64,000 nt of DNA from Acinetobacter phage vB_ApiM_fHyAci03. The position numbers were made by a program, and so were the translations under genes. A model generated the notes under the pieces. That model was not told the origin of the DNA. It ran no database searches and was given only the letters and a program-made list of their open reading frames with translations. The DNA lies in the sequence record NC_049438.1, one strand, 5' to 3'. Shown one piece after another: positions 2,322 to 42,443 of this stretch; positions within the stretch are counted from its first letter, which is position 1; each line of letters begins with the position of its first letter.

Positions 2322-3818
2322 TTAGAAATTTAATTGTGCTGCAAGATCTTCAAGCTCAGATCGTGATGCTGCAGAAATTCGATGAACTTTTTCTAGTTCT
2401 TCACGATTAGACAATTTGATTGACTCTTCTGTGATAGGAATATTCTCCTTTGCATCAACACATGCTTTAATAATGATGTCATCAGTCATCATTTCGTCAG
2501 GAATAACTGGTGCACTCGGTCCATCTGCTTCATACCAGCGCTGATTACCTTTCTTAACACATAACGTGAATTTGTTATTGATTGACTTGTCGCCATAACG
2601 AGATTTAATTTGTTTCATTAGCTGAACACCTTGTGCTGCAAGCTCTTCAGTTTCAATTGCAGCTAAAATGAAGTCAGCGGTATGGCTTAAGCCTGCAGAT
2701 TCTGCAATATCGCTCATGGTAATATCAGAGTTATCCCAGCCGCCACGAGTTGTTTGAGCAGCAGTCCAAATTGGGACTCCTTCTTCAACCGCTAATGCAC
2801 GTAGTTCTTCAGCGATTGCTTTAACAAGTGTATATGAATTTTCGCTAAACACCTTAATTCGAGATGATGCACAAATACCCAAGTAATCGACAACAATAAC
2901 ATCTGGCTTAAATCCCTTCTTGAGTTTGAGTTCATTCAATAACGCTTTAAATGTTAATGCATGTGCACCGCCAATAGGATATTGTTTGATGTACAATTGT
3001 CCTAAAACATTTGCTCGTCTCCAACGTTCCATACGAGCTTTATATTCGGGGTAACTAACATGTCCATCATCTAAGTCATCCATTGAGATATCTAGCAAGT
3101 TTGCATCAATACGTTTTGCAACAACTTCTTCTGCCATCTCCATTGAGATATAAAGAACATTTTTACCGGATTGCAAATAGTCGGCAGTTAATGAACACAG
3201 CCCTAAAGATTTACCAACATTAACACCTGCTAAAATGATGTTAAGTGTTCCAATTTCTACACCGCCTTTAGTGATTTTTCCAAGTATAGAAAGTTTGAAT
3301 GGAATCTTACGTGCTTTGTTCTGATATGATAACCAACGAGATTCATAGTCATCCATCCAGTTATGCCCAATAGATGAATCAAAGCATACTGCTAATGCCT
3401 CTTTCATGATATCTGGGATTGCACCTACATCAGGCAATCGTTTATCTCGTTGGTTTATAGGTTTATCAGCATTGTTCTGAATTTGAACAATTTTTACAGT
3501 GGCATTATATATCGCACGTTTTTTGATAAACGCTTCTGTTTCTGGTACTAACCAATCAATAGATTCCTTTTCAGTTTTGAGATTGTTTAATAAAGTAGTT
3601 GTGCCGTTGAAGTCTACTTCGTTTAAACTTGAATTGTTGACAACTAAGTCTAATGCTACTTTTGATGGAACTCCATGGTATGCATCTACATGCTTCTTAA
3701 TAGAGTTATAGAGAATTCTTGCTGGACCTTTGTCAAAATATTCCTCTTTGAGATATGGCCATACTTTGCCAAAATACTCTTGATTCGAGATCAATTGTCC
3801 TAAAATAATATCAATCAT
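2322..3818 (-). CDS. 41: replicative DNA helicase gp41 (DnaB-like)
   Basis: 498 aa; Walker A GVNVGKS, RecA-like helicase motifs; synteny with T4 41. Confidence 0.9.
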   Translation of the reverse strand: MIDIILGQLISNQEYFGKVWPYLKEEYFDKGPARILYNSIKKHVDAYHGVPSKVALDLVVNNSSLNEVDFNGTTTLLNNLKTEKESIDWLVPETEAFIKKRAIYNATVKIVQIQNNADKPINQRDKRLPDVGAIPDIMKEALAVCFDSSIGHNWMDDYESRWLSYQNKARKIPFKLSILGKITKGGVEIGTLNIILAGVNVGKSLGLCSLTADYLQSGKNVLYISMEMAEEVVAKRIDANLLDISMDDLDDGHVSYPEYKARMERWRRANVLGQLYIKQYPIGGAHALTFKALLNELKLKKGFKPDVIVVDYLGICASSRIKVFSENSYTLVKAIAEELRALAVEEGVPIWTAAQTTRGGWDNSDITMSDIAESAGLSHTADFILAAIETEELAAQGVQLMKQIKSRYGDKSINNKFTLCVKKGNQRWYEADGPSAPVIPDEMMTDDIIIKACVDAKENIPITEESIKLSNREELEKVHRISAASRSELEDLAAQLNF

Positions 3819-3868
3819 GTGAACACCTTAATTAACTAAATCAATTATATCATCATCTCATAGAAGCA

Positions 3869-3886
3869 ATAGGCCCGAAGGCCTAT
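3869..3886 (-). terminator. rho-independent terminator, GGCC-UUCG-GGCC tetraloop hairpin
   Basis: AGGCC-CGAA-GGCCT (UUCG on transcribed strand) + U tract, directly after ORF 3888..4190 stop. Confidence 0.6.
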
Positions 3887-3887
3887 T

Positions 3888-4190
3888 TTAAAAACTGAAC
3901 GGTTTCTTACGTTTAGAGAAGTTCACAATCATTTCTTTTAGAATATATTCGATATGTGGAATCAACTCTGCCTTACGATCTTCACTTGGAGTACTGAAGC
4001 CATATGTTACTCCATTGCCGGAAATTTGGAATTCTGTAATGTAAACAATATGATCTGTACCATCTTCAAGCTTAATTAGGAGTTCATGTTTTACATCTTT
4101 CATTGCATCTTTAATAATACTTAAAGACTTTTCATATAAAGCGCCTGATGGGCCTTTATCATCTTCTTGAATTGCTTCAACTTGTTCCAT
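3888..4190 (-). CDS. hypothetical protein (100 aa)
   Basis: ORF track; followed by UUCG-tetraloop terminator. Confidence 0.5.
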   Translation of the reverse strand: MEQVEAIQEDDKGPSGALYEKSLSIIKDAMKDVKHELLIKLEDGTDHIVYITEFQISGNGVTYGFSTPSEDRKAELIPHIEYILKEMIVNFSKRKKPFSF

Positions 4191-4193
4191 ATG

Positions 4194-5312
4194 TTACTCC
4201 AATAATGCCTTTTCCCACATCGCGTACACACGAGATGGATTGTATTGTTCATATAATGCATTAGCACGTGCAACACGTTGTTCATATGTGTCTTCGAACT
4301 CATTTAATGCTTTAGAATATGCGGCAATAATGTCATTAGTTGTCATACCTTCTTCAATCCAAACAACTTTAGTTAATGGATCATGTTCAAGTGTTGCATG
4401 ACTATAACCACGTTTGATGAGTTGAAGTACAGGCACACCTTTCTCAATAGCTTCCAATGAACCATGTTCAATAGTGCCTGTGTCATGACAAGTGTTAACA
4501 AGGACTAGCGCTTCGGCTAATGTTGCCTGGATAGTTGCACGCGGAACATCAATATGTACAAAAGGCTCTTTGAGATATTTCTTAGGTGGTGCCCATTGAC
4601 TTGGCAGGAATGCAGCAATTTTATGGTGAGATTTACTCATTGCTTCTAAAGCTACATTTGTCTTTCTGAATTTCAAATCATAGCGCTGTGCTGAAACTAC
4701 AACACCATTAGAAGGCAGCACTTTAGGACGATTTTCGATTAATGTAGCCGGGAAGAAATTATCTGAGATGATGTCATGCTCTTGCCAATAATCGAAATCA
4801 ATTGCACCTTTAGCAACTTTGATATTCATTTTTGAATACACTTGAGCCGTAAGGTCTTTAAATGTTTGAGTTGGCACAAGATTCTTGCCGCCATTTTGGT
4901 GAATAAAAACAGCAGTACGCCAAATTGAAACAAGTGTTCGAATACTAGGATCGAGTGGCGTGGCTAAAAGGTTTCGAATTTTAGGTCCTAACCCGAGTTT
5001 GATCAAGCCATTGATAACACCTTTTGCACCTTCAACAGTAACAACTACATCATATTTTGAATAGTCCAATTGTGAAATTTTGTCAATGATTTTGTTGCCG
5101 TGTTTGATAGTGTACTTGTCCACAATTGGGTAGTCAATAGATATTGCATTGACTTTATATGGACCAAAGTTCTCATCGCCGAACGCCATGTAATCGATTT
5201 CATGGTGCTTACTCATTGTTTTGATGAAATTCAATTGAACTGATTCTAAGCCACCGGAAATATAATCAGCATTAAATGTAATAAATCGACATGGAATGTA
5301 TAAAATTTTCAT
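4194..5312 (-). CDS. GT-B fold glycosyltransferase (paralog 1), candidate DNA hydroxymethyl-base glycosyltransferase
   Basis: 372 aa; C-terminal GT4-like motif EHGSLEAIEKGVPVLQL; ~50% identical to adjacent ORF; sits where T4 has beta-gt. Confidence 0.7.
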   Translation of the reverse strand: MKILYIPCRFITFNADYISGGLESVQLNFIKTMSKHHEIDYMAFGDENFGPYKVNAISIDYPIVDKYTIKHGNKIIDKISQLDYSKYDVVVTVEGAKGVINGLIKLGLGPKIRNLLATPLDPSIRTLVSIWRTAVFIHQNGGKNLVPTQTFKDLTAQVYSKMNIKVAKGAIDFDYWQEHDIISDNFFPATLIENRPKVLPSNGVVVSAQRYDLKFRKTNVALEAMSKSHHKIAAFLPSQWAPPKKYLKEPFVHIDVPRATIQATLAEALVLVNTCHDTGTIEHGSLEAIEKGVPVLQLIKRGYSHATLEHDPLTKVVWIEEGMTTNDIIAAYSKALNEFEDTYEQRVARANALYEQYNPSRVYAMWEKALLE

Positions 5313-5341
5313 GTTTCATCTCAAAGAAAGTGTAGTATTAT

Positions 5342-5360
5342 GGAGCCCGAAGGCCCCAGT
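5342..5360 (-). terminator. UUCG-tetraloop hairpin after glycosyltransferase paralog 2
   Basis: GGAGCC-CGAA-GGCCCC between the two GT genes. Confidence 0.45.
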
Positions 5361-5367
5361 TTCAAAA

Positions 5368-6492
5368 TTATTTTAAAACATTTTCCCAGAGTTTGAAATA
5401 TGCTTCTTCGTTAAATTTGTTGTAAAGATATTCAGCCCGTGCAACACGTTGTTCATATGTATCTTCAAACTCATTTAATGCTTTAGCATACATCTCGATT
5501 AATTCTTGAGTACTTGCACCTTCTTCAAATTCAACTCGAACAGTATTAGGGTCGTACTCAAATGTAGCATGGTTGTATCCTTTTTGAATGAGTTGAAGTA
5601 CTGGCGTACCTTGAGAAATAGCTTCAAGCGATCCATTTTCTACTGTACCAGTGTTGTGGCACGTATTGACAAGAAGTTTGGCAGTTGAAATTTCTTTTTG
5701 TATGGTTTGTCGTTTAGCATCGATAATGACCCAGTGATCTTTCTCCAGCCATTTTTTGCCAGGTGCCCATTTCGACGGACAGAATGCGATCTTAGGCCCA
5801 TCAAATAAATCCATTGCACCGAATGCAACATTAGATTTTCTGAATGCATTGTCAAACCGTTGGGCTTGTACAATATGCCCTTCAGAATGAAGGACTTCAG
5901 GTTTATTTGCAATCAAAATCGGCGGATAAAATTCATCTGCAATAATATCATGATTTTGCCAATAATCAAAATCAATGACTTCTGCGGCAATACGTTCATT
6001 CATTTTAGAATAAACCTTTGCAGCTAAATCTTTGAACGTTTGAGTAGGAACGATATTCTTTCCGCCAAGTTTATGGACCATTACTGCATTGTTCCAGCAT
6101 TGTACGATACCACGAACTGATGGGTCAAGTGGAGTAGCAAGAATATTACGAACCTTTGAAATTTGTCCAAGTTCGGCTAATGTATTAAGAACCATTTTAC
6201 TGCCTTCAATGATCACAATAGCATCGTACCGATCCCAGTCTGTGATTTCTTGAAGTTTGTATTTGATTTTATACGCATGTGCGGTAGTGAACTTTGCGCC
6301 AATAGGTTTATCAATTGATAATTCGTTAACTTTAACACTGCCGAAGTTTTCGTCGCCAAATGAAACGTAATCGATATCATGCACTTTTGACAAGTTGACA
6401 ATAAAATTATACTGAACCGCTTCAAGGCCGCCAGCAACACGATCAATATCAAATGGCACTGAACGGCAAGGTAAGTATAAAATTTTCATATT
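5368..6492 (-). CDS. GT-B fold glycosyltransferase (paralog 2)
   Basis: Paralog of 4194..5312 (MKILYLPCR..., ENGSLEAISQGTPVLQL); likely start at second Met (6492) abutting upstream kinase gene. Confidence 0.7.
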   Translation of the reverse strand, partial: NMKILYLPCRSVPFDIDRVAGGLEAVQYNFIVNLSKVHDIDYVSFGDENFGSVKVNELSIDKPIGAKFTTAHAYKIKYKLQEITDWDRYDAIVIIEGSKMVLNTLAELGQISKVRNILATPLDPSVRGIVQCWNNAVMVHKLGGKNIVPTQTFKDLAAKVYSKMNERIAAEVIDFDYWQNHDIIADEFYPPILIANKPEVLHSEGHIVQAQRFDNAFRKSNVAFGAMDLFDGPKIAFCPSKWAPGKKWLEKDHWVIIDAKRQTIQKEISTAKLLVNTCHNTGTVENGSLEAISQGTPVLQLIQKGYNHATFEYDPNTVRVEFEEGASTQELIEMYAKALNEFEDTYEQRVARAEYLYNKFNEEAYFKLWENVLK

Positions 6493-7033
6493 ATGCTCCA
6501 ATAAAATTTTCAAGGTTTAAATCATAAACCACATCAGTAAATGATTTAGCTTCATTAATATTGTTGTGTACATCATGATCGAGGATTTTATATGGAGTTA
6601 TATTAAATTCATCATATACTTCATTAAACCGATCTACGATTGCATTGAATTGATCTTCACTTACTGTAATTAAATCATCAGTAAAGCTATCTACAAGTTT
6701 GTTTCGTGTTAGCCCAATAACCAAGACTTCATTGTTTTGAATGAAACGTCTGAAATCATCTTTGAAGATTTCAACTGGCTTTCCACGAAGAACACTTTCA
6801 TATACAATGTTACTTAAACCGCCTCGATCCAAAACATAGATTTTACTGTTATCGACATAATTTAACATCGTTTCAAAAATTGCGACTTCATTTCGAGTTA
6901 GACAAGTGAAACGTCCTTCACTTGTCTTTTTCGGAAATTCCATCAAGGTTACATCAAAATGACGAGTAAGATTGCTAATCAAAGTTGTCTTACCAGCATT
7001 ATCAGGCCCTTCTACAAGAATTATTTTTGCCAT
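6491..7033 (-). CDS. thymidylate-kinase-like nucleotide kinase (180 aa)
   Basis: P-loop GPDNAGKTT and TMPK DR-motif LDRGGLSNIVYE; distinct from gp1 dNMP kinase found at 46572. Confidence 0.6.
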   Translation of the reverse strand: MAKIILVEGPDNAGKTTLISNLTRHFDVTLMEFPKKTSEGRFTCLTRNEVAIFETMLNYVDNSKIYVLDRGGLSNIVYESVLRGKPVEIFKDDFRRFIQNNEVLVIGLTRNKLVDSFTDDLITVSEDQFNAIVDRFNEVYDEFNITPYKILDHDVHNNINEAKSFTDVVYDLNLENFIGA

Positions 7034-7965
7034 ACATCTTCACCAGGTTGAATAACTACTTCATCATATGATGGCATTATATACTCACTAATGATGTTAG
7101 CATCAAAATAAATCAATTCACCTAACCCAGGATGAAACACATTTTGTGGATTTTCGTTGTAGATAATTGTTGGACGCTGAGACAACGTAATGTAATACGC
7201 GATCTTTGACATTTTAACATCCATAATGGTTACATCTGGATATAGCTCAGCAATCTGATCTTTAAAATCAACATATGTGTCATTTGGATCTGTGATAATG
7301 AGCATATTACCAGTTTCTGCACAATCTTTTACAACATCCATGAATCTATAACATTTGTCAGAGAGTCTGAATGGAAAGAATACAATATTAGAACCCATGT
7401 GCTGAGTGTCATCGATATTTTTTATATATCGTGCAATGACATCAGGATTGACTACCTTTTGAGTCATCACAATTTTATCTGCATCAATTCCATGAGCAAT
7501 AAATTCTGCTCGTTGAGATTCATTCAATACAAATACTTTAATAGATTGCCGTGCAGTTTCAAGATCCGATTCCCACCATTTATCAATGTATGGACGATCT
7601 AATCCAGGAACTTTGGAAATATTTGCATTGAAAATAAATTCATGAACTCCATTATAACCAGTGACATCAGTTATTAATACGTCGATGTTGTTTATTCGCA
7701 TAATTTCATCAACATTAGATTCATTCCAATACCAGAACCATTGGCGAGTTTCTTCAGCATTAGTACCATAATGAAATTGTACAAAGTTGAAATCTGGAAA
7801 TAAGAATTCTAATTCAGATTTGTCTGAAATGTTGAATGGTACAGCAATCAAATCGCCTTTCTGTGCACGATGTAGATGCAACTGAAAGTTGCCGTCTTTG
7901 AGGACGGCATACTCACGAGTAGCATATGATCGCATTGAAAAAATTGGCACAATCATTCTGCTCAT
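7021..7965 (-). CDS. hypothetical protein (314 aa), possible glycosyltransferase-like
   Basis: ORF track; weak C-terminal GT-B-like pattern (HPGLGELIYFDANII); within modification island. Confidence 0.5.
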   Translation of the reverse strand: MSRMIVPIFSMRSYATREYAVLKDGNFQLHLHRAQKGDLIAVPFNISDKSELEFLFPDFNFVQFHYGTNAEETRQWFWYWNESNVDEIMRINNIDVLITDVTGYNGVHEFIFNANISKVPGLDRPYIDKWWESDLETARQSIKVFVLNESQRAEFIAHGIDADKIVMTQKVVNPDVIARYIKNIDDTQHMGSNIVFFPFRLSDKCYRFMDVVKDCAETGNMLIITDPNDTYVDFKDQIAELYPDVTIMDVKMSKIAYYITLSQRPTIIYNENPQNVFHPGLGELIYFDANIISEYIMPSYDEVVIQPGEDVWQK

Positions 7966-7968
7966 AGC

Positions 7969-8679
7969 TTATTCTTCCAAAAATGATTTAACATATTCAA
8001 TATCCCGTTCAAATACATGTGCAGATACAATTGAGTGTGCATAAGTGCCAAGTCCTACACCACATTCTTTAGCAACATGTTCCATGAATCGATGCATAAG
8101 ATAAAAATCTAATTGCATTACCACTGCACAGTTTTGACTACGCATATGAGTATGCATATAAAGTAGCCCTTCACGAATATAAAACGTAATAGAATCCGTG
8201 CATGGGTATTCTAAAGTTTCATCTGAATCTAAAAGAACTTGGTCTTGCTCCTGAAGAATTTGGAAAACTACTCGTCGTGAGTTTGGTTTTTCTTTAAGTT
8301 CTTTAATAAGAGCTGGCATTTGGGCTGCGATTCGTGGCCCGTAGAAGGTGTTGAAATTCGAAGGAAGAGTATCCGTCTTCGGCTTTGCAATGAACTTCGC
8401 GACATTTGGATACTCCTTAAACGCTTGTTCCGCATCTGTGCCACCTTGAATCATGAATTCCCAGAATTTTTCAGCATAACCATAATCAATACGATTGATA
8501 CGTTTGTCTTTAAATGTTGCACCTTGTTCAGGTAATCCGATTTCAATAAGAATTGAACCAATTTCATGACACTTACCGATACGAGAATCTGTGACGAATT
8601 CCGGTGCTTCAACAACAAAATTATTGATACGTTTGAATGCCTCTTCGAACGTGCTAGCTAAAATATATTTTGACATCAA
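7969..8679 (-). CDS. 42: deoxynucleotide hydroxymethylase, thymidylate-synthase family (gp42-like)
   Basis: 236 aa; TS-family motifs NSRRVVFQI and PCTDSITFY...MRSQN; synteny with T4 42. Confidence 0.65.
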   Translation of the reverse strand: MMSKYILASTFEEAFKRINNFVVEAPEFVTDSRIGKCHEIGSILIEIGLPEQGATFKDKRINRIDYGYAEKFWEFMIQGGTDAEQAFKEYPNVAKFIAKPKTDTLPSNFNTFYGPRIAAQMPALIKELKEKPNSRRVVFQILQEQDQVLLDSDETLEYPCTDSITFYIREGLLYMHTHMRSQNCAVVMQLDFYLMHRFMEHVAKECGVGLGTYAHSIVSAHVFERDIEYVKSFLEE

Positions 8680-9071
8680 ATCACCTTTGGGGTATATGGT
8701 TGTTTAGATAATAACTCATTTTTTAGAAAAGCATCTTTGAACTCACGTGGGTTCATTGCTTTGTCATCAATGATCCAGTCATAAACCGGCTTATGAGTTA
8801 TCAAGTGATGATATTTCAATCCGATTTTCTTAAGATTTTTTATTAAAGGTGGCAAGATAATCGAATCAATTAATTCTGGGCCTACTGACTTCATGCCTCT
8901 GGCTGTGAACAGTGTGATTGTATGCCCTTGATCATATAACGAATTAATAGTATCGACCATCTGTTGGTCTGGAACGAAATTCTCATAATCTCGATTATCA
9001 TTCCAGACAGTAATGGTGTTATCGATATCTATGCAAAAATGTTTTGCACCAGTCATTAAAGTTTCTCCCAA
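8676..9071 (-). CDS. HAD-superfamily sugar phosphatase (131 aa)
   Basis: DxDxT motif FCIDIDNTIT; small KdsC/GmhB-like HAD. Confidence 0.55.
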   Translation of the reverse strand: MGETLMTGAKHFCIDIDNTITVWNDNRDYENFVPDQQMVDTINSLYDQGHTITLFTARGMKSVGPELIDSIILPPLIKNLKKIGLKYHHLITHKPVYDWIIDDKAMNPREFKDAFLKNELLSKQPYTPKVI

Positions 9072-10717
9072 TGCATACCATCAACTAATTTATTTGGACG
9101 ATATTTTTCACCGGTTTCTAAATCAATTAAGAGCCATTTATCAGGATTTTTGGTTGTCAATGTAGCGCTGACTAATCCTGTGTCATACGCTACTGAACCA
9201 TCCTGAAGACGTCGTCCCATGTGACTAAGTGTTTTCGATAACAAATACATGCCATAGTAGTATGCACTTACAGCTTTAAGTGGATTGTTTTTGAAATATC
9301 CCGCAAGCGCGATCCAAATAACAGCAACCCATAAATGATGATACTCATTAAATGGTTCTGCATCAACATTTGTCAAGCCTAATGGCTCAATATTCACAAT
9401 AGCTGAATCGCCATCAATCGATAATCCACCCCACATAGGATCCGCATTAAATTTATCATAACCAGTTAATGCATAAAATACTTTAGCTTCATCATAAATT
9501 CGTGGACCATAAATTTTTGTTTTGCCAAAGTATCCACGTGGATCAATCAAACGAACTTTGCCTTTATCATCTAACATCAAGTTACTAAAGTTCGGGTCGC
9601 CATGAATAACATAGTAATCTTTGTCAGAGGCTTCATACATTAAATGAGCGTATGCTTGTTCAAGCATAGTTTCTAAACGTCCAATTTTATGATGATTCAC
9701 ATATTGAATATCGCCAAATGATTGTATTAGCCCTTTAATTTCATTACAACGAGCTAAAACTTTATCAACGACTTCATAACGATAGTCTTCAGCGATTTGT
9801 TCACGTGATGTGAATTCATTCATTTTAGGGAACTTAAGTGTTTCAAGAATTTCTGTGAGCATTTCTGGTTTATATGCCTCAAACATTGGAACACCTTTAA
9901 TTCGTTCCATTTTAAAAGACATATATTCACCAAAATCACGTCGATCAATGATTTTTGGCACCGCATCACTTTCTACACTATCGTACCATGCAAGCTCTTC
10001 ACGTTGAAGTTCTCGCCCCTTTTCATTCAATGCAGTTTTATACACAACATCATTTGCTATTGTAATTGAATTAAATTCTCGATTTAATTCACGGTGACGA
10101 TGTGCGTGTTGGAGTTTTGGCTTATCACCAAGATCAATAAGATTAATCAATTCTTCTTGATACATATTTTTTGCATCAAGCAATTCTACAAAATCACGCC
10201 CTTTGAAGAATTCGTTCGCTTCATCTTTATCATCAAAGTTACTAATAAAGAAATCTTTAAATTGATAGATGCCGACAACATTACCACCAGTACCACCAGT
10301 TTCAGTTAATGTTTTGCCATCAAAATTATATCGACATTCATCACCAAATGTATAAACCGAATTGCTATTCCATGAGAATGCATCAAATTGTGGAATGACA
10401 TCACACCAATTGAATACTACATTATGCAGATTGATCAAATGAGAAATTCGAGAAATTGCATAAGCCGAGCCATAAGCTTCATCAACAGTTTCAACAATTA
10501 TGTCTAACTTGAAAATCTTTGCATACTCACGTACTTGTTCTGCAAATTTGCTATGTACAACCACAATAATTTCATCTGCACCTAATTTTTTGTAGATGCC
10601 ATGCAAATGATGTAGAATTGTATGCTGTTTGTAGTTCACCAAAACTTTAGGAATATGATGTGTGATAGGATACAAACGAGTAGCTAAGCCTGCACCTAAA
10701 ATAACCGCTTTTTTCAT
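9056..10717 (-). CDS. bifunctional sugar-1-phosphate nucleotidyltransferase / APH-type sugar kinase (553 aa)
   Basis: N-term GlmU/RmlA-like motif AVILGAGLATRLYP; C-term APH/ChoK-like catalytic loop HGDPNFSNLMLDDKGKVRLID. Confidence 0.65.
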   Translation of the reverse strand: MKKAVILGAGLATRLYPITHHIPKVLVNYKQHTILHHLHGIYKKLGADEIIVVVHSKFAEQVREYAKIFKLDIIVETVDEAYGSAYAISRISHLINLHNVVFNWCDVIPQFDAFSWNSNSVYTFGDECRYNFDGKTLTETGGTGGNVVGIYQFKDFFISNFDDKDEANEFFKGRDFVELLDAKNMYQEELINLIDLGDKPKLQHAHRHRELNREFNSITIANDVVYKTALNEKGRELQREELAWYDSVESDAVPKIIDRRDFGEYMSFKMERIKGVPMFEAYKPEMLTEILETLKFPKMNEFTSREQIAEDYRYEVVDKVLARCNEIKGLIQSFGDIQYVNHHKIGRLETMLEQAYAHLMYEASDKDYYVIHGDPNFSNLMLDDKGKVRLIDPRGYFGKTKIYGPRIYDEAKVFYALTGYDKFNADPMWGGLSIDGDSAIVNIEPLGLTNVDAEPFNEYHHLWVAVIWIALAGYFKNNPLKAVSAYYYGMYLLSKTLSHMGRRLQDGSVAYDTGLVSATLTTKNPDKWLLIDLETGEKYRPNKLVDGMHWEKL

Positions 10718-10784
10718 AATTAAAAATCCTAAAAGAGTTGTGATACGACTTATAATATCACAACTCTCAATTAAAGTACAATGC

Positions 10785-11414
10785 TTATTTAGATTCTGCT
10801 CTGAGCATAGCTCCTAATGAGCCACCAGGATGGTAAGAATAAAAGTCTTCGCGGGTGAATTGTAAATAATCTGAAAGTGTTACGCCGATAGTGTCAAGTA
10901 GCGTTAATAGAACCGTGGTGCTGGTAGTTGGTGCCAATTGATTGACATCACACTCTACAATATTCGGTACACCGAATTCCATATCAAATGGTGCTTTTTG
11001 CTCATCGGTTAAATTAGTATTACAGTGTAATAAGATTTGAGTCACATTAGGGCGGATTGTGCGAAGATGTTTTGCCATGTATTGCATTTCATCTGTTTTG
11101 CCGGAACGTGATACATGAATAACTACATCGTCATGCCCAATAAAACCTGCATCACCATGAGAGTAATGACATGTATTTAAGTACATAGACGGGATGCCAA
11201 GGCTCGCAAATGATTCTGATGCTTTAGTAGCCAAGTTTGAGTTTTTGCCGACGCCAGTAATCATAATACGCTGTCGATAATTTGATGCTGCCACAGGCTT
11301 CAAAATTTCAAGTAACTTTTCATATTTCACTTGATTTTCTGCAATAAAATCGCCTAGTATTTTAAGCGCCTGTTGTTGAGCCGCTACTACATCTAATGCT
11401 AATTTGATACTCAT
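10785..11414 (-). CDS. SIS-domain sugar-phosphate isomerase, KdsD-like arabinose-5-phosphate isomerase (no CBS domains)
   Basis: 209 aa; GVGKNSNLATKASESFASLGIPS...HGDAG...DVVIHVSRSGKTDE matches KdsD-type SIS signature better than GmhA. Confidence 0.7.
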   Translation of the reverse strand: MSIKLALDVVAAQQQALKILGDFIAENQVKYEKLLEILKPVAASNYRQRIMITGVGKNSNLATKASESFASLGIPSMYLNTCHYSHGDAGFIGHDDVVIHVSRSGKTDEMQYMAKHLRTIRPNVTQILLHCNTNLTDEQKAPFDMEFGVPNIVECDVNQLAPTTSTTVLLTLLDTIGVTLSDYLQFTREDFYSYHPGGSLGAMLRAESK

Positions 11415-11449
11415 AATGTTTACCTCTAAATTATGGAACTATTATATCA

Positions 11450-11773
11450 TCAATCTTTCAAAATTGATCTGCTTATAGAAAAGTGAATTTTGGCTGGCTC
11501 ATAATGACGCCCTTGTTCAAATTCTTTAGTGAAACGAACCGAGAGTTGAGTTTTGTTCATTCGAACAAAATTTGTATCGATGTACTCAAACAACTCTTTT
11601 ATTGCACCTGCGCTTTTTTCGCCGTTGAAGTATACGTGAGTCCACATCTCATTATCAGGCGAGCTGATAATTCGATCTTTAAGAATGTGCTCGGCTTCAG
11701 TTACAATAGCCTCAGCTTCTGCATGGTTGATGAAACGTGGAGTCTCGCTCAATAATTTTTTAAAGTTAATCAT
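11450..11773 (-). CDS. hypothetical protein (107 aa)
   Basis: ORF track. Confidence 0.5.
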   Translation of the reverse strand: MINFKKLLSETPRFINHAEAEAIVTEAEHILKDRIISSPDNEMWTHVYFNGEKSAGAIKELFEYIDTNFVRMNKTQLSVRFTKEFEQGRHYEPAKIHFSISRSILKD

Positions 11774-12315
11774 TAGTATAAATTCTCTGAATATAATGTT
11801 CCGCCATTAGATTTGTCTCCGCCTACACGTCTAACAATTTGTTTTTGCTCGACTGCAATATGCCATGCTTCTTGGCGATCAACAAATCTAAAGTGATTTG
11901 TCACGAAGCCTTGAATTTGCTCTGGCATTTCATAAGTTCTATCGCCGAGACGATCAAGTATTTGCCATGCCAATTCGTCGAAGTGTCTGACACTTGGAAT
12001 AACAAGGTCACCAAATTTTGTTGCAGCACATACAATGCGTTCAGGCACATTTACTTCATTGCCATTAGGCAACTCATCAACATCATAATGCTCTAAACGT
12101 CTGCACTTCTCTTGCCATGCCAGATTAGCATGTGCTAAATGATTAATCTCAAACTCGTGAGCCTGTTTAAGTTTTGAAATTTCATCTTCTTTAGTAGGCA
12201 AAGAGTTGTCCACTAAATAGGTACTTTGACGTGCCATGTCCGGTTCCCAAGTATATTTACCTGCAGTGTTTAATTCTGAAAGATCTGTACCATTATCAAT
12301 CATATCATTCACCAA
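11773..12315 (-). CDS. hypothetical protein (180 aa)
   Basis: ORF track. Confidence 0.55.
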   Translation of the reverse strand: MVNDMIDNGTDLSELNTAGKYTWEPDMARQSTYLVDNSLPTKEDEISKLKQAHEFEINHLAHANLAWQEKCRRLEHYDVDELPNGNEVNVPERIVCAATKFGDLVIPSVRHFDELAWQILDRLGDRTYEMPEQIQGFVTNHFRFVDRQEAWHIAVEQKQIVRRVGGDKSNGGTLYSENLY

Positions 12316-12655
12316 TACATTGCTTTAAACGCTTTTGGTAGTTTGAAGACTTAAGATAACCAAATTCAATCAAGGTTTGCTCGATTGCCATTTGACGACA
12401 AGTGTGAATTACAAAAGTTGCTGCATCCATTTGTGGCTTATTACGAAGTTTCTCCAGTACAGGACGCTCACGTTCTACTGCATCATCAATATGTGTCTGA
12501 AGCATCCTGCGATGATTTTGCATATCTTCTTCTAAATCAATTCGACGTTGTTGATCAGCTAAACATCGTTTGTCCCATCCTTTGCACATTTGTATATCTT
12601 CAGCAAAAGATAAACTTGGAATAGCTAATGCTAGTGCAATCAATACAAATTTCAT
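12305..12655 (-). CDS. secreted/periplasmic hypothetical protein (116 aa)
   Basis: N-terminal signal peptide MKFVLIALALAIPSLSFA. Confidence 0.5.
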   Translation of the reverse strand: MKFVLIALALAIPSLSFAEDIQMCKGWDKRCLADQQRRIDLEEDMQNHRRMLQTHIDDAVERERPVLEKLRNKPQMDAATFVIHTCRQMAIEQTLIEFGYLKSSNYQKRLKQCIGE

Positions 12656-12948
12656 TACATTGCTCCCAATAAGCTTGCGATAATTGCAAGGTCACCGACA
12701 CCTGCTATAGCAACAATTAGTAATAAGACTAATGCAAATGCGATAGATTTTAAAGCATTCATCACACCGATCGATATTGCAGCTATGATAAATGCAATGA
12801 ATGTTGTTACGCCCATTGTAACGAAGCCAAGTAAGTTTAGAATAACCACAAGGACTGTAATCGCAGTAGAACTCTTATAGAATACTACCATTGCAATAGG
12901 AAATATTGACAAAAATAACGCTACGATACTTCCAAATAAGAGACTCAT
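12655..12948 (-). CDS. small polytopic membrane protein, Imm-like position
   Basis: 97 aa, almost entirely hydrophobic; located between 43 and 42 like T4 imm. Confidence 0.45.
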   Translation of the reverse strand: MSLLFGSIVALFLSIFPIAMVVFYKSSTAITVLVVILNLLGFVTMGVTTFIAFIIAAISIGVMNALKSIAFALVLLLIVAIAGVGDLAIIASLLGAM

Positions 12949-13256
12949 GAGGCGTCTCCTTTAAGTAAAATTAACTCGGTTGTAGTATAGTTAAGTTGAT
13001 CGATAGTGATACAAGTATCTTCCCAACGTTTAACAACATCTTGAACTTCAGCAATGACTTCGTAGTCAGATCCTGGATAGTTGTCCCAATCTTCTGCACG
13101 TCGAATCGGTTCATCACTAAATGCAGTAATAGTTCCATCTTTGTCGACTGCTACATGAGCAGCCCATTCTGGCAAGTATACTGTTACGGGACCAGATTTT
13201 TCAGAACCTGAGATTAGTGTAACATTTAACGCATGCGGATAGTAAGTAATTTTCAT
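12945..13256 (-). CDS. hypothetical protein (103 aa)
   Basis: ORF track, coupled to upstream ORF. Confidence 0.5.
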   Translation of the reverse strand: MKITYYPHALNVTLISGSEKSGPVTVYLPEWAAHVAVDKDGTITAFSDEPIRRAEDWDNYPGSDYEVIAEVQDVVKRWEDTCITIDQLNYTTTELILLKGDAS

Positions 13257-13344
13257 GACGATTTCCTCATTAGGAATAATTATTTGATAGAGTTATTATA
13301 CTAACAAAAATAGCGAAAGTAAAACAAAACTTTCGCTATTTTAA

Positions 13345-13647
13345 TCATTTGCCGTAACGATTTACGAAATGTTCTACCATGTTGTCTGCAATAGTCGCAG
13401 CTGATGAAGAAACTCCATCGCATCCACGAAGGACACCGCTATTTGGCAGATATGCCAATGCACAAGCCTTCCAGAATTCACGTTTCTCTAATTCTGTGAT
13501 TGCAGGAGTAGGTGTACTAAAAAGCTGGTATTCACGAGCTTCATCCACCGATACAGTAGTTCTACATTTAGTACAACGAACTTTAGGTGGACTACTTAGC
13601 AATACTGCGTCGAAATTAAATTCATGATTGCATAATAAACTGTTCAT
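13345..13647 (-). CDS. hypothetical Cys-rich protein (100 aa)
   Basis: ORF track; CxxC pairs (CTKCRT). Confidence 0.45.
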   Translation of the reverse strand: MNSLLCNHEFNFDAVLLSSPPKVRCTKCRTTVSVDEAREYQLFSTPTPAITELEKREFWKACALAYLPNSGVLRGCDGVSSSAATIADNMVEHFVNRYGK

Positions 13648-13680: not shown

Positions 13681-14853
13681 TTAAAAGTCAAATAAATCTT
13701 CTAATGAAGAACGTTTTTCTGCTTGCATACCTGCAGATTCACACATACCTTCCAAAGGTTTCTTATATGTTTTTGTAAACAATGACATAACGTCAATATG
13801 TTTTAAAACATCTTCACGAATTTCTTTTGGAAGTTCGTTACCTGATGGCCATGCAATAACTTTGTCGCCGAATGGATTTCCAGGTTTCAAAGGCAAGATC
13901 ATAACTTTATCACCTTCACTAATATCCGGTAAGTTATCGAATGCCTTAATTGCACGTCGATACGTCAAAACACCACGAATATGACTAGGACATTTCAATC
14001 CAGGGAAGCCATTATCATCATATTTTGCAATGTTATTTGCAGTTCTTACACCTGCAATAACTTTGTAATCAAGATTTCTAAATTCATTTTCAAATTTCTT
14101 GAAATAGTCTTGAAGTGGCTTTTCACCTTCTTGGAGCATAATACGAATACTTTCTAACAATGCATCTTTGACCGCTTTAGGTGTAGATGATTGTTGAGTT
14201 TCCATGCCCATGATTTTCAAGTATGGCTCTTTAAAACGAGTACCTTCCATGTCATACACATTTAATGCATAACGTTTCTTAGCTCGCCAGAATCCACCAA
14301 TACCGTTTGAACCGAGTGGTGGACATGCAATTGCTTCGCGATCCATGAACATTAATTGCTCATAGTTGTTAAGATATTCGCACAGTTCTTGGAAGCCTGC
14401 ATTAATAACTGGTTCGATTTTCTTTGAACCTACTGCATCTAAGAAGTCAACTAATTTTTCAGTTGATGCAAATTTTTCAATGCCAACTTTATCAATGAGT
14501 GGACTCAATTCAATATACAATGAATCTGTATCACCATAAATTACATACGGATGATTAGTTGTTCCACACATTTCATTAAGGTATGCATTAATTTTTCGTT
14601 CTGTCCATTGAAGGACCAATTGTCCGAAAATAGTAATCGCTTCTGCATTACGAAGATCGTAAAATCTAAAGTAGATATTGCCGAGTGCACCATATAATGA
14701 ATTAATCAATAATTTTCGATTAATTTGATTCGTATCACACAAAACAATATAGTTTTCACATTCATGCTCAAGTTCAAGCAATTCTTCTTGTGAAAGTGTT
14801 TTGAGATATTCGATTTCGGATTCAGTTAAGTCACGACTAAAATCTAATTTCAT
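13681..14853 (-). CDS. 43: DNA polymerase gp43 C-terminal subunit (43B: palm motifs B and C, thumb)
   Basis: 390 aa; KLLINSLYGALG (motif B), YGDTDS (motif C), colinear with T4 gp43 residues ~520-898; own GGAG SD + ATG. Confidence 0.9.
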   Translation of the reverse strand: MKLDFSRDLTESEIEYLKTLSQEELLELEHECENYIVLCDTNQINRKLLINSLYGALGNIYFRFYDLRNAEAITIFGQLVLQWTERKINAYLNEMCGTTNHPYVIYGDTDSLYIELSPLIDKVGIEKFASTEKLVDFLDAVGSKKIEPVINAGFQELCEYLNNYEQLMFMDREAIACPPLGSNGIGGFWRAKKRYALNVYDMEGTRFKEPYLKIMGMETQQSSTPKAVKDALLESIRIMLQEGEKPLQDYFKKFENEFRNLDYKVIAGVRTANNIAKYDDNGFPGLKCPSHIRGVLTYRRAIKAFDNLPDISEGDKVMILPLKPGNPFGDKVIAWPSGNELPKEIREDVLKHIDVMSLFTKTYKKPLEGMCESAGMQAEKRSSLEDLFDF

Positions 14854-14874
14854 ATAAACTCCAAATTGATGGGA

Positions 14875-15040
14875 TTATTCTATAACATCATAATCAACTG
14901 ACACTATAGCTTTAATTGTTAGTTCCTTTGAACAGGATTCGCAATTGACTTTGAATTCTTCATCGGCATGTCTCCAATGCTCAAAGTAATCGGACGTGTC
15001 AAGTTCAGAATTGCAGTGTGGGCAGTATATTTCAAACATT
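14875..15040 (-). CDS. small zinc-ribbon protein (55 aa), not in ORF track
   Basis: Hand translation MFEIYCPHCNSELDTSDYFEHWRHADEEFKVNCESCSKELTIKAIVSVDYDVIE; GAGG SD 8 nt upstream; two CxxC pairs. Confidence 0.4.
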
Positions 15041-15149
15041 TCTATGCCTCAAAAGGGATATGACAATTATATCATATCCCTTATCAAAAGCTTAACTATA
15101 ATTCAGATTGTATAATGTAATACGAATCACTTTAGGCGTACGTTTATAT

Positions 15150-16859: not shown

Positions 16860-18368
16860 TTATTTCATTAATTTTTTAATCACTTCGGCATTACGCTTTG
16901 CAGCCATCATTTTCTTCTTCCATTCTTTACGTTGGAAGAACACTTTAGTAATTTCTTGTGGAATGATACCTTGCTTTGTCTTCGAATACATCATACCGCT
17001 TGGCGAGCATGAGAATTCATTTGAAGGACTCGGTGCAATCTTATTAATGAAATCACTAAGTTTAGGCGGTGCAAATTGTCCTGCAATTGTTTCTGGGCTA
17101 ATGTTTACCTGGCGAATGATTGACGGATACAGAGATGTTACGTCAAACGACAAAACATATTTGTACGCACCAGGCACAGGGTTTTTAACATATGCGCCTT
17201 CATACGGTTGTCGAACATTTGGCTTAGCTTCCGGTAAAACTAAGTGCTCGGCTTTTAATGAGTTGAAGATAATTGCATCCCAAGTTTTCACAGGACTCAT
17301 TACTGTTGCAATATTCATTCGAGCGTAATAGCCCATTGAAATTGACAGGTTGATAAATCCTCGTTTTGCGTCAATTGCTTGTACACAGTACACATCGACA
17401 ATGTTATATGAAATATAACGCTGGTGGTTTGATTCACGTAATTTGTCGATTGGCCCATCATATTCTAATTTGTTGATGCCAGCTTCATATTCTGCAATAT
17501 AATCGAGTTTATATGATGGCTGTGAAGTAAACGCAAACTTTTTGTATAAATCCATGTAATCGAGAATCATGATTCCAGAAATATTGAAAATTTCTTTATC
17601 TCCATACATGTTTTGAATGACTTTTGACGTTACTTTACCAAAAGGACTTAAACGTTTCATGTTCGAGACGCCAAGAACGTTTTTGATACGATTTACAATA
17701 TATGGAATATCAAATCCTTCAACGTTCCAACCGGTGAAGATGACAGGAGTTTTTTCTTCCCATAAACGAATGTATTCTAACAGCATTTCCTTTTCTGTTT
17801 CGAATGGCATATACACAACTTTATCTAAAATATGTTGTGGAACTTCATCGCCGCCTTCATCAATTGATTTGCCTGCAAGAACCGGATCCCACTTTGAAAC
17901 ACGTCCACGTTGAGAGTTCAACAAGTCAAACACGTAGTATTTGTCATCAATAGAATCATAGTGTGTAATTGCATCAATTTCATATTTTGCAAAAGTCGGA
18001 TTCGGGAACTCTCCTGCTGTTACCTCGATGTCACAGTTTGCAACACGAATTGCATTTCTGTTATATGTGATGTCCTTTTTTCCATACACATCAGAAATAT
18101 ATGCAAGTTTGAAGTCATCCATACCTAAAATTTCTACAATTCCACGTGTCTTTTGCATCCAGTCTTTAGCCTCACGAATGGAGCTAAAACGTTTAGGAAT
18201 ACATGGCTTGCCATAAATGTCTTTATATTTTGATTCAACGCCTTCTTTGGCATGAATGAACAATGTAGGCTCATATGGAATTTCACGAACTTTTTCGACG
18301 CCATTTTCCACATAACGCTCTTGAATAAGGTCACCAGATTGTTCAACTACTAGATAGAAATTATCCAC
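16860..18368 (-). CDS. 43: DNA polymerase gp43 N-terminal subunit (43A: 3'-5' exonuclease domain and palm motif A)
   Basis: 502 aa; FDIEV exo I, DVTSLYPSII motif A; ends ...AEVIKKLMK* exactly where T4 gp43 continues; GTG start with AAGGAGA SD. Confidence 0.9.
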   Translation of the reverse strand: MDNFYLVVEQSGDLIQERYVENGVEKVREIPYEPTLFIHAKEGVESKYKDIYGKPCIPKRFSSIREAKDWMQKTRGIVEILGMDDFKLAYISDVYGKKDITYNRNAIRVANCDIEVTAGEFPNPTFAKYEIDAITHYDSIDDKYYVFDLLNSQRGRVSKWDPVLAGKSIDEGGDEVPQHILDKVVYMPFETEKEMLLEYIRLWEEKTPVIFTGWNVEGFDIPYIVNRIKNVLGVSNMKRLSPFGKVTSKVIQNMYGDKEIFNISGIMILDYMDLYKKFAFTSQPSYKLDYIAEYEAGINKLEYDGPIDKLRESNHQRYISYNIVDVYCVQAIDAKRGFINLSISMGYYARMNIATVMSPVKTWDAIIFNSLKAEHLVLPEAKPNVRQPYEGAYVKNPVPGAYKYVLSFDVTSLYPSIIRQVNISPETIAGQFAPPKLSDFINKIAPSPSNEFSCSPSGMMYSKTKQGIIPQEITKVFFQRKEWKKKMMAAKRNAEVIKKLMK

Positions 18369-29580: not shown

Positions 29581-30588
29581 TTATTTTGAAAGAATTTTAA
29601 TTGTTTCTTCGAGTGCAGAAACTTTTCGTGCAAATTCTACCTTTGCATCACGAAGTGTTTGAATTCGTGAAAGTAGTTCAGCGATAGTATCATCAGTCTC
29701 GCTATCCTGTTTTTTCAGTGCATCTATATTAGCCTGAACTAGTTCTATTGCAACAGATGTGCCAAGCTTTTCTCCTGGATTTGACACCATGAACAGTGGT
29801 GACTTGCTCATTACTGTAACTTGTGGTGCCTGTTCACGTAGCGTGACTTTTAATGAATATGCATTAACACCTTGTTCAATTTTTAAATTAGTGCACTGCG
29901 ATAATAACTTGTACATCTTTTCCGCAATCGCAAGGGCATTTGAACGTGCAGTCGGATGATCAAATGTAGGATGGAATCGAATAGTGCACGTAGAATTATT
30001 TACACCTGAATCTACACTAATTATGGTATGCTCAAGCTTAACACCCGGAATTGTAGCACCATTCTGAGTTCGATGCCCAATGTTTGCCAGATTTTGAATA
30101 CTTCGATTATTAGTTCGTTCTAAACGTAGCATACCAGAAATAATTGATGCCAACTGATCGTCAACAAATTTACTTAATGAAAATGAAGTTCGATTTGCAG
30201 CCTTCACATTAGAATTATAATCTGTTATGTAAAATTCTTCGCCTGTGCCTTTAACACTACAAAAATTTCGTATGCGATGGGTAATTAATATACGTGTGGC
30301 CCAGTTGGTTTTGATTAATTTTGCAATTAAATTTGGTGCTTGAGAAGCACTTAATGCAGAGTAATGTGTAAGAATTCGTCTAAGAATCTTTTCGATTTCA
30401 TCAGATGGTGCGCTGTCAAAAACACGACTCAATTCAAAGTGGATATTTCGTTGTACAGTGTTTGCTATAACATGTGGCAAACCTTCATTTGATAAGATTT
30501 TATGACGACATGCATTAGCATTGATTGTGTCTTCAAATTGACGGTGAACGATGTCACTAATAATAGATTTAAATGTAGATTTATTCAT
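29581..30588 (-). CDS. hypothetical protein (335 aa), C-terminal coiled coil
   Basis: ORF track. Confidence 0.55.
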   Translation of the reverse strand: MNKSTFKSIISDIVHRQFEDTINANACRHKILSNEGLPHVIANTVQRNIHFELSRVFDSAPSDEIEKILRRILTHYSALSASQAPNLIAKLIKTNWATRILITHRIRNFCSVKGTGEEFYITDYNSNVKAANRTSFSLSKFVDDQLASIISGMLRLERTNNRSIQNLANIGHRTQNGATIPGVKLEHTIISVDSGVNNSTCTIRFHPTFDHPTARSNALAIAEKMYKLLSQCTNLKIEQGVNAYSLKVTLREQAPQVTVMSKSPLFMVSNPGEKLGTSVAIELVQANIDALKKQDSETDDTIAELLSRIQTLRDAKVEFARKVSALEETIKILSK

Positions 30589-30652
30589 GCCATATAACCT
30601 TTAGGATATTATGAGACTATTATAACAATACTCTCATAATATGTAAACACCT

Positions 30653-32540: not shown

Positions 32541-32570
32541 GTCGATTCTCCAAAGGAATATGTGTTTTAA

Positions 32571-33968: not shown

Positions 33969-33994
33969 CTTAAACCTCCATGGTATAGAGCCTA

Positions 33995-42354: not shown

Positions 42355-42443
42355 GTGGCGGAAAGCAATGTAGTCGAAACATAACCGAATTAACGGTCCA
42401 CTCGCTTAGCAGGCGGTGCCAATCACCTTATTGGTTTACTTTC

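Follow-up and report, generated by a model that had tools for sequence, protein, structure and literature searches.

A predicted arabinosyl-5-hydroxycytosine DNA hypermodification cluster in Acinetobacter phage vB_ApiM_fHyAci03

We analysed a stretch of 64,000 nucleotides (nt) from Acinetobacter phage vB_ApiM_fHyAci03 (sequence record NC_049438.1; the window hereafter) with a focus on eight open reading frames (ORFs) at positions 4194-11414, all on the minus strand. An earlier reading of the same letters (the original prediction) had described them as a self-contained route from a pentose phosphate to an activated pentose and onto hydroxymethyl-pyrimidine DNA. Our comparisons indicate that these genes are the gene-for-gene orthologs of gp76-83 of phage DLP3, a cluster for DNA hypermodification with arabinosyl-5-hydroxycytosine, and from the sequence we put the probability of this reading at roughly 0.93. 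The eight genes in one direction, their boundaries and the domain families named for them were all recovered, and the route from ribulose-5-phosphate over activated arabinose to modified cytosine in DNA is borne out by orthology to the DLP3 cluster. The proposal probably does not hold, however, for the base that is modified or for how many sugars it carries. This type of cluster is already known; since papers of 2025-2026 describe the system for phages almost identical to this one, the window contributes just another member.

Megablast assigned the window to Lazarusvirus (Straboviridae, Twarogvirinae), T4-like phages of Acinetobacter baumannii. The DNA of the cluster is 98.9% identical to that of Lazarus, 98.8% to KARL-1 and 77% to Maestro over 98% of the region, and against DLP3 (PQ034586) the identity is 97.2% across all 7221 nt. 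In DLP3 the eight genes gp76-gp83 are arranged and oriented as here and are likewise flanked by gp40 and gp41. Seven of the eight cluster proteins (orthologs of DLP3 gp76-80, gp82 and gp83) are 98.3-99.7% identical to their counterparts, the remaining one being the phosphatase (gp81, 84%). Nothing in the sequence speaks against an arabinosyl-5-hydroxycytosine cluster.

Base-modifying enzyme and nucleotide kinases

The thymidylate-synthase homolog of the cluster had been taken for a gp42-like hydroxymethylase. Its phmmer matches were the PDB entries 9iqu, 9iqc and 9ir2 (E = 4e-111), and the aligned part of 9iqu is identical to RB69 gp48 at 228 of 231 positions. The protein was then aligned with E. 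coli ThyA, T4 gp42 and RB69 gp48 (E. coli ThyA numbering is used here). In this alignment C146 is kept while L143 is replaced by Glu, D169 by Asn and N177 by Asp, with the stretches RSQN...QLD and LEYPC; position 169 is Asp in T4 gp42 as well as in ThyA. The window protein is 98.3% identical to DLP3 gp80, 69.7% to RB69 gp48 and 21.5% to T4 gp42. The signature of 5-hydroxy-deoxycytidine monophosphate (5-hydroxy-dCMP) synthases, namely Asn at D169, Asp at N177 and the catalytic Cys, is present in the window protein. A gp42-type dCMP hydroxymethylase with Asp at the D169 position was not found, the window protein having Asn, and a second thymidylate-synthase homolog was not found in the 64-kb window.

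DLP3 gp80 and RB69 gp48 gave 5-hydroxy-deoxycytidine (5-hydroxy-dC) in E. coli DNA in vivo, and for RB69 gp48 the hydroxyl oxygen was derived from 18O2 (PMC13326640). The purified synthases were flavin-bound, with flavin mononucleotide (FMN) or a related flavin as the cofactor of RB69 gp48 (PMC13326640). Asn at E. coli ThyA D169 was proposed in the same study as diagnostic of 5-hydroxy-dCMP synthases, and 9 out of 9 diverse D169N homologs made 5-hydroxy-dC (PMC13326640). Because of the 98.3% identity to DLP3 gp80 and the D169N signature we infer that dCMP is hydroxylated at C5 here as well, i.e. that the window homolog is a flavin- and O2-dependent 5-hydroxy-dCMP synthase and not a hydroxymethylase. 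The family assignment of the original prediction thus stood, its choice of reaction did not.

The DNA of DLP3 itself is in accordance with this assignment. By liquid chromatography-tandem mass spectrometry a DLP3 nucleoside of m/z 640.22 sheds deoxyribose and three pentoses to leave a base of m/z 128.05 (PMC13326640). This fragment is 5-hydroxycytosine, where hydroxymethylcytosine would give 142.06 (PMC13326640). Nuclear magnetic resonance (NMR) and gas chromatography-mass spectrometry (GC-MS) of DLP3 virion DNA gave beta-D-Araf-(1-5)-beta-D-Araf-(1-3)-alpha-D-Araf (Araf, arabinofuranose) with an ether bond to C5 of 5-hydroxy-2'-deoxycytidine (PMC13326640). RB69 was originally reported to carry arabinosyl-hydroxymethylcytosine (PMC6024577); arabinose linked directly to C5 was independently confirmed in a Mosigvirus, and the earlier RB69 assignment was called erroneous (PMC13390438). 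With 5-hydroxycytosine in the orthologous DLP3 and a D169N synthase in the window, the acceptor would be 5-hydroxycytosine in place of the hydroxymethyl-pyrimidine that had been expected.

The cluster also encodes a P-loop kinase resembling thymidylate kinase (TMPK). Its Pfam match is AAA_28 (E = 4e-6), with Thymidylate_kin matching the P-loop only, and it falls into PHROG 761 'thymidylate kinase' (E = 1.7e-31). We found the motifs GPDNAGKT at residue 9 and DRG at residue 69, an identity of 98.3% to DLP3 gp78 and 46% to RB69 gp45, and 65 positions that are invariant across Lazarusvirus, Lasallevirus and Mosigvirus; the search gave no close solved structure. The enzyme is indeed additional to gp1, as had been predicted, a gp1-type kinase being encoded at 46599-47309. 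In RB69 the gp1-type kinase gp159 phosphorylates 5-hydroxy-dCMP to the diphosphate (PMC13326640). The TMPK-like protein is a putative kinase of 5-hydroxy-dCMP or 5-hydroxy-dCDP (the diphosphate).

Arabinofuranose supply and transfer

The isomerase, the fused 553-amino-acid (aa) protein and the phosphatase together point to a supply of uridine diphosphate (UDP)-arabinofuranose. The best NCBIfam models for the SIS protein were kpsF (TIGR00393, E = 1.9e-27), KdsD (E = 5e-25) and GutQ, and no GmhA model was among its NCBIfam matches. The match to the KdsD model (328 positions in all) extends over positions 46-202, and as it is limited to the SIS part the CBS pair is absent, just as the original prediction had it. 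Further matches were to PDB entries 5uqi (E = 5e-24), 3etn and 2xhz and to PHROG 5670 'arabinose 5-phosphate isomerase' (E = 7e-99). The protein has GVGK at residue 54, HGD at 86 and HPGG at 195, and is 99.5% identical to DLP3 gp83 and 58% to RB69 gp55. We predict that it is a KpsF/KdsD-type arabinose-5-phosphate isomerase making arabinose-5-phosphate from ribulose-5-phosphate. A GmhA-type protein, which had been named as the outcome that would overturn the arabinose pathway, was ruled out together with the heptose reading, the best models being KpsF, KdsD and GutQ.

The 553-aa protein matched Pfam NTP_transferase at residues 3-99 (E = 6e-9) and, weakly, APH at 344-392 (E = 0.0075). It contains GAGLATRL at residue 8, HGDPNFSN at 372 and IDPRG at 391, and consists of an N-terminal sugar-1-phosphate nucleotidyltransferase domain (about 1-200) and a C-terminal APH/ChoK-type kinase domain (about 205-553). 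PHROG 4098 was matched over the full length (E = 3.5e-255), and the identities are 98.7% to DLP3 gp82, 64% to RB69 gp53 and 52% to RB69 gp52. The predicted fusion of the two activities is thus supported by domain matches, motifs and protein family. With the C-terminal 354 aa as the sole query we retrieved 245 protein clusters, nearly all of them of proteins of about 550 aa, and the distant homologs of this half carry PF00483 and PF01636. Among the homologs of the nucleotidyltransferase-kinase are TH1_060 of Shewanella phage Thanatos, a protein of Serratia phage 92A1 and a few proteins from bacterial metagenome-assembled genomes. Since at least 245 protein clusters contain it, the fusion is widespread and not the novelty for which it had been taken.

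The small HAD phosphatase was likewise recovered as predicted. It matched PDB entry 9iqw (E = 4.5e-48), the aligned part of which is identical to RB69 gp51 at 119 of 119 positions and to the window phosphatase at 76 of 119 (64%); the identity between the window protein and RB69 gp51 is 63%. NCBIfam TIGR01689 (capsule biosynthesis phosphatase) was matched with E = 6e-11, and the HAD motifs are DIDNT (DxDxT) at residue 10, TAR at 51 and DD at 97.

The order of the activation steps comes from phage HY126. The findings of He et al. (Nat Chem Biol 2026) on HY126 and of Mahler et al. (Cell Host Microbe 2025) on arabinosyl-hydroxy-cytosine phages are cited here as relayed by PMC13326640, PMC13390438, PMC13216743 and PMC12923530. 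As relayed by PMC13326640, AfhE of HY126 is a bifunctional arabinose-5-phosphate 1-kinase and UDP-arabinofuranose pyrophosphorylase, and AfhF, a phosphatase that depends on Mg, converts arabinofuranose-1,5-bisphosphate to arabinofuranose-1-phosphate. In that account the 1-kinase acts on arabinose-5-phosphate, followed by the 5-phosphatase and the uridylyltransferase, whereas the phosphatase had been placed before the kinase in the original prediction.

Three glycosyltransferases would make use of the activated sugar. The 314-aa protein, to which no function had been given, had no match in Pfam and belongs to PHROG 3891. Its family occurs in 347 records of a phage collection, mostly flanked by a thymidylate-synthase homolog and a kinase, and an AlphaFold2 model built from 36 homologs had a mean pLDDT of 94.4. 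The protein is a GT-B fold glycosyltransferase encoded beside the synthase, and we predict that it adds the first arabinofuranose, in alpha linkage, to the 5-hydroxyl of 5-hydroxycytosine. Since this makes it a third GT-B transferase, the product would be tri- rather than di-arabinosylated, in agreement with the tri-arabinosylated product of DLP3 and at odds with the two sugars that had been proposed.

The two paralogs had been described as GT-B enzymes of about 50% identity; they do form a GT-B pair, with an actual identity of 57%. Paralog A is 98.7% identical to DLP3 gp77 and 42% to both the HY126 glycosyltransferase (PDB 9iqz) and RB69 gp3, the latter two being 98% identical to each other. 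The profile of the paralog family matched 9iqz with E = 6.9e-117, and the chain-extending GT-B homologs of RB69 gp3 and the HY126 enzyme are thus present in the window (40-42% identity for the family), with all family-invariant residues kept in both copies. Comparison with the A. johnsonii phage Acj61 showed that paralog A is 85% identical to p077 and 55% to p076. Both paralogs share 85-86% identity with their own Acj61 orthologs and 54-57% with the other paralog, a pattern which implies that the duplication is old and that both copies were retained under selection. The pair is not new either: the Acj61 record already carries the remark 'putative copy of Acj61p076', and DLP3 gp76 and gp77 have been assayed.

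In the phage collection this second transferase family was found in 210 records at 264 places, with two copies in 54 records and one copy in 156. The two-copy records are Acinetobacter-named with at most one exception among the 54 (labelled Tegunavirus sp.), and the one-copy records are named Escherichia, Shigella, Enterobacteria, Mosigvirus or simply 'phage'. This distribution fits mono-, di- and tri-arabinosylating groups. Copy number in the second family may even predict the number of arabinoses, to judge from RB69 (one copy, two arabinoses) and DLP3 (two copies, three arabinoses). Bas46 and Bas47 have two arabinoses each (PMC12923530). DLP3 gp76 and gp77 with UDP-arabinofuranose converted RB69 DNA, which is mono- and di-arabinosylated, to the tri-arabinosylated form in vitro, and neither did so alone (PMC13326640). 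We propose that paralog A adds the second sugar, beta-Araf(1-3), and is needed with paralog B for the third, and that paralog B adds this third sugar, beta-Araf(1-5). Homologs of the T4 alpha- or beta-glucosyltransferase were not found in the window, where tblastn with beta-gt gave no match.

Proposed pathway and alternative explanations

Taken together our results suggest the following pathway. The synthase would hydroxylate dCMP at C5 with flavin and O2, a reaction shown for its orthologs. The 5-hydroxy-dCMP would be brought to the triphosphate by the gp1-type kinase, whose phosphorylation step has been shown for an ortholog too, perhaps with a contribution of the TMPK-like kinase, and by the host nucleoside diphosphate kinase. 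The phage polymerase would then insert 5-hydroxy-dCTP instead of dC. On the side of the sugar the SIS isomerase would, by homology, convert ribulose-5-phosphate to arabinose-5-phosphate, the C-terminal kinase domain of the 553-aa protein would phosphorylate this at C1, the HAD phosphatase would take off the 5-phosphate and the N-terminal nucleotidyltransferase domain would yield UDP-arabinofuranose; for the orthologs of the last two proteins this kinase-phosphatase-uridylyltransferase order is the one relayed from HY126. We predict that the 5-hydroxyl receives alpha-Araf from the 314-aa GT-B enzyme, and the two paralogous GT-B enzymes would lengthen the chain by beta-Araf(1-3) and then beta-Araf(1-5). 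The addition of a third arabinose on DNA has been shown for the orthologs, and the match of each paralog to its linkage is our proposal. According to the literature a modification as bulky as this would shield the phage DNA from restriction enzymes and CRISPR-Cas.

Two points weigh against this reading. The phosphatase diverges from DLP3 gp81 (84% identity), although its catalytic motifs are intact. Positions 8794-8994, within the phosphatase gene, have 72% DNA identity to DLP3 and 99% to Lazarus, and nearly all other 200-nt stretches of the cluster are 95-100% identical to both. The stretch looks like a small mosaic patch that gives rise to the 84% protein identity, and we would not expect a functional difference from it. 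The other point is that DLP3 gp79 and each of the paralogs singly were inactive in vitro on 5-hydroxycytosine DNA (PMC13326640), so that the assignment of enzymes to sugars is in part inferred. Lee et al. (Nucleic Acids Res 2026), who studied DLP3 and RB69, cannot tell whether the first arabinose goes onto the mononucleotide or onto DNA (PMC13326640). One may imagine that synthase, 314-aa transferase and TMPK-like kinase act jointly on free nucleotides. In such a scheme 5-hydroxy-dCMP or its diphosphate would receive the first arabinose ahead of replication, and the kinase would handle the glycosylated or hydroxylated nucleotide. Arabinosylation at the nucleotide level is conceivable because the three genes lie close together here (distances of +3 and -13 nt, the start of the kinase gene overlapping the 3' end of the transferase gene by 13 nt) and a trio of this kind is adjacent in an unrelated phage family, and because the single transferases are inactive on 5-hydroxycytosine DNA. 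We consider it an unlikely variant of the pathway, yet one worth bearing in mind.

Could the cluster instead make hydroxymethylcytosine, with a gp42-like dCMP hydroxymethylase and two transferases adding two pentoses? The enzyme is of the thymidylate-synthase family, it shares with T4 gp42 the Asp at N177 and an acidic residue at L143, RB69 was first reported to contain this very product (PMC6024577) and several GenBank records call the gene a dCMP hydroxymethylase. The residue at D169, however, is Asn where T4 gp42 has Asp, and this signature predicted 5-hydroxy-dCMP synthases for all nine variants (PMC13326640). The identities of 98.3% and 70% are to two makers of 5-hydroxy-dC, DLP3 gp80 and RB69 gp48, and that to T4 gp42 is 21%. 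Moreover the base fragment of DLP3 is the one at m/z 128.05 and not 142.06, the older assignment has been called erroneous (PMC13390438), and the GT-B enzymes number three and not two. A hydroxymethylcytosine system is therefore highly improbable. We give hardly any weight to the idea that the genes supply a heptose, a capsule precursor or some other activated sugar for the host surface or another target than DNA. It draws on the label 'phosphoheptose isomerase' of PHROG 1238, on the 'capsule biosynthesis phosphatase' of TIGR01689 and on a succession of isomerase, kinase, phosphatase and nucleotidyltransferase that resembles the synthesis of adenosine diphosphate (ADP)-heptose. Yet the models matched by the SIS protein are KpsF, KdsD and GutQ, with none for GmhA among them, and the phosphatase is 64% identical to the aligned part of Mosigvirus 9iqw, with its HY126 homolog AfhF reported, in the account relayed, to act on arabinose-1,5-bisphosphate. 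The genes also lie in the slot of T4 gene 42 and are translationally packed with the base-modifying enzyme, and the sugar on DLP3 DNA is D-arabinofuranose by GC-MS and NMR (PMC13326640).

The pathway could also be the same but with the TMPK-like kinase as a non-functional or redundant relic and the paralogs as merely redundant copies. RB69 gp159 already phosphorylates 5-hydroxy-dCMP (PMC13326640), and RB69 gets to the di-arabinosyl form with one copy of the transferase family. Against this, the kinase retains its P-loop, the DRG motif and the 65 positions invariant across three genera; the paralogs are closer to their own Acj61 orthologs (85-86%) than to the other paralog (54-57%), as expected of an old duplication kept under selection; two copies are found in Acinetobacter phages, a group that includes the tri-arabinosylated DLP3; and gp76 and gp77 were both required in vitro (PMC13326640). 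Decay or mere redundancy of these genes seems very doubtful to us.

Gene layout, neighbourhood and relation to known systems

The features of the locus are listed in the table. For three of the genes the mechanical ORF is longer than the gene that we report. The ORF of the HAD phosphatase (8676-9071) opens at a TTG at 9071, and the ATG at 9056 agrees with the annotated orthologs. Likewise the ORF of paralog A (5368-6513) opens at a TTG at 6513, and the ATG at 6489 agrees with the orthologs. For the thymidylate-synthase homolog (mechanical ORF 7969-8679) the ATG at 8676 is the preferred start from ortholog comparison and inspection of start codons.

Table. Genes of the predicted arabinosyl-5-hydroxycytosine cluster and related features (positions in the window)
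Feature	Position	Strand	Length	Remarks
SIS isomerase	10785-11414	-	209 aa	SIS domain only; ortholog of DLP3 gp83
Fused nucleotidyltransferase-kinase	9056-10717	-	553 aa	ortholog of DLP3 gp82, RB69 gp53+52, HY126 AfhE
Small HAD phosphatase	8676-9056	-	126 aa	ortholog of DLP3 gp81, RB69 gp51, HY126 AfhF
Putative 5-hydroxy-dCMP synthase (thymidylate-synthase superfamily)	7969-8676	-	235 aa	ortholog of DLP3 gp80, RB69 gp48
GT-B glycosyltransferase, predicted first arabinosyltransferase	7021-7965	-	314 aa	ortholog of DLP3 gp79, RB69 gp46:47
TMPK-like P-loop nucleotide kinase	6491-7033	-	180 aa	ortholog of DLP3 gp78, RB69 gp45
Putative GT-B arabinofuranosyltransferase, paralog A	5368-6489	-	373 aa	ortholog of DLP3 gp77
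Putative GT-B arabinofuranosyltransferase, paralog B	4194-5312	-		ortholog of DLP3 gp76
gp1-type deoxynucleoside monophosphate kinase	46599-47309	-		outside the cluster; tblastn with Lazarus gp1, 98.3% identity over 238 aa
gp40 head-vertex chaperone	3888-4190			downstream of the cluster
gp41 helicase	2322-3818			downstream of the cluster

The intergenic distances within the cluster are only -16 to +67 nt, which makes cotranscription plausible. Scans for sigma-70 promoters and intrinsic terminators over 3700-12400 gave counts at the level of chance (44 against 38.8 expected and 4 against 5.0, respectively), and operon boundaries therefore cannot be drawn from them. The guanine-cytosine content of the cluster (36.1%) is close to that of the window (36.6%), so there is no compositional sign of a recent insertion. 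The inserted island of the original prediction was rejected as a recent acquisition on these values and because the slot is occupied throughout Straboviridae.

The cluster had been placed between an imm-like gene and helicase 41, where T4 was said to have only 42 and beta-gt. It does lie near gene 41, but gp40 intervenes and a T4 Imm homolog was not detected upstream; in T4 the interval from imm to 41 holds 42, beta-gt, segA, uvsX and 40. By tblastn T4 Imm, Imm.1, beta-gt and UvsX had no match in the 64-kb window. For the six small ORFs at 11450-13647 the PHROGs gave families of unknown function only. Within this stretch an ORF at 12655-12948 on the minus strand encodes a very hydrophobic protein of 97 aa (PHROG 30393, function unknown) without detectable similarity to T4 Imm, and is probably what had been called imm-like.

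Further features were noted elsewhere in the window. The DNA polymerase is split into 43B (13681-14853, minus strand, 390 aa) and 43A (16860-18368, minus strand, 502 aa), which are separated by small ORFs over about 2 kb; the split is also annotated in Lazarus and Acj61. The plus-strand HNH endonuclease gene that Lazarus has beside 43B in the 43B-43A stretch is absent here, and positions 14762-15044 have no Lazarus match. Equally absent, at about 48934-48937, is the homing-endonuclease gene found between gp2 and gp4 of Lazarus (33629-34279 in Lazarus). Positions 29615-33975 have 83.6% identity or no megablast match to Lazarus, the remaining window being at 96-99%; the corresponding region of Lazarus contains a hypothetical gene, a tRNA-synthetase-like gene and a MazG-like pyrophosphohydrolase gene. 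Six transfer RNA (tRNA) genes lie at 42280-45140 on the minus strand (Trp, Pro, Ser, Thr(tgt), Leu, Cys), while the Lazarus counterpart annotates eight (Trp, Phe, Pro, Ser, Leu, Cys, Ile and one labelled 'Pyl'), so that the sets differ.

The remaining value of the locus is in the correction of misleading public annotations. In NC_049493, NC_049441, OL770262 and other records the arabinosyltransferases are labelled 'DNA alpha-glucosyltransferase'. The HAD phosphatase is called 'phosphoheptose isomerase' there, and 'dCMP hydroxymethylase' or 'thymidylate synthase' is the name given to the 5-hydroxy-dCMP synthase. The D169N signature separates 5-hydroxy from 5-hydroxymethyl systems. The biology is notable for a thymidylate-synthase fold switched to hydroxylation with flavin and O2 and for a phage-encoded route to UDP-arabinofuranose. 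Up to three sugars per cytosine, blocking restriction enzymes and CRISPR, are also relevant to phage therapy of carbapenem-resistant A. baumannii.

In comparison with known systems, every testable defining feature of an arabinosyl-5-hydroxycytosine cluster is present in the window, whereas those of the T4 hydroxymethylcytosine system are absent. Maestro, from a different lineage of T4-like Acinetobacter phages, has the same cluster including two copies of the paralogous transferase and is listed among the phages with arabinosylated 5-hydroxycytosine (PMC13326640). The coliphages RB69 (gp45-55 and gp3) and HY126 (Afh enzymes; PDB 9iqu, 9iqc, 9ir2, 9iqw, 9iqz and 9ir0) have the same families as found here, with RB69 identities of 70% for the synthase, 46% for the kinase, 46-48% for the first transferase, 63% for the phosphatase, 52-64% for the nucleotidyltransferase-kinase and 58% for the isomerase. 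RB69 differs in that its second transferase is a single-copy gene far from the cluster, beside rIIA, and in ending at two arabinoses. It also has the extra genes gp49 and gp50, neither of which gave a tblastn match in the window. In both T4 and RB69 the base-modification genes are separated from gene 40 by uvsX, whereas here the cluster abuts gene 40 directly.

The glucosyl-hydroxymethylcytosine genes of T4 (gp42, alpha-gt, beta-gt) occupy the same slot between the DNA polymerase gene and genes 40/41 and follow the same logic, in which a thymidylate-synthase-family enzyme is followed by kinases, the polymerase and GT-B enzymes with a UDP-sugar. The chemistry at C5 is a folate-dependent hydroxymethylation in T4 and would be a flavin/O2 hydroxylation here, and where T4 uses UDP-glucose of the host the arabinofuranose would come from phage enzymes. 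The supply of the sugar has a parallel in the ADP-heptose pathway (GmhA, HldE, GmhB), which starts with a SIS isomerase and anomeric phosphorylation to a bisphosphate, from which a HAD enzyme removes the distal phosphate, and ends with nucleotidyl transfer. The four-step logic is the same and in both cases kinase and nucleotidyltransferase are fused. HldE, however, joins a PfkB kinase to a cytidylyltransferase-type domain, whereas the protein here joins an APH/ChoK-type kinase to a GlmU/RmlA-type transferase, and the isomerase is GmhA-type there and KpsF/KdsD-type with a predicted pentose substrate here. Finally, gp214-216 of Rhizobium phage RL38JI are an adjacent nucleotide kinase, first glycosyltransferase and D169N 5-hydroxy-dCMP synthase, as in the window (PMC13326640). 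RL38JI belongs to another phage family and is without arabinose-activation genes, its sugars being hexoses, galactose and then glucose (PMC13326640).

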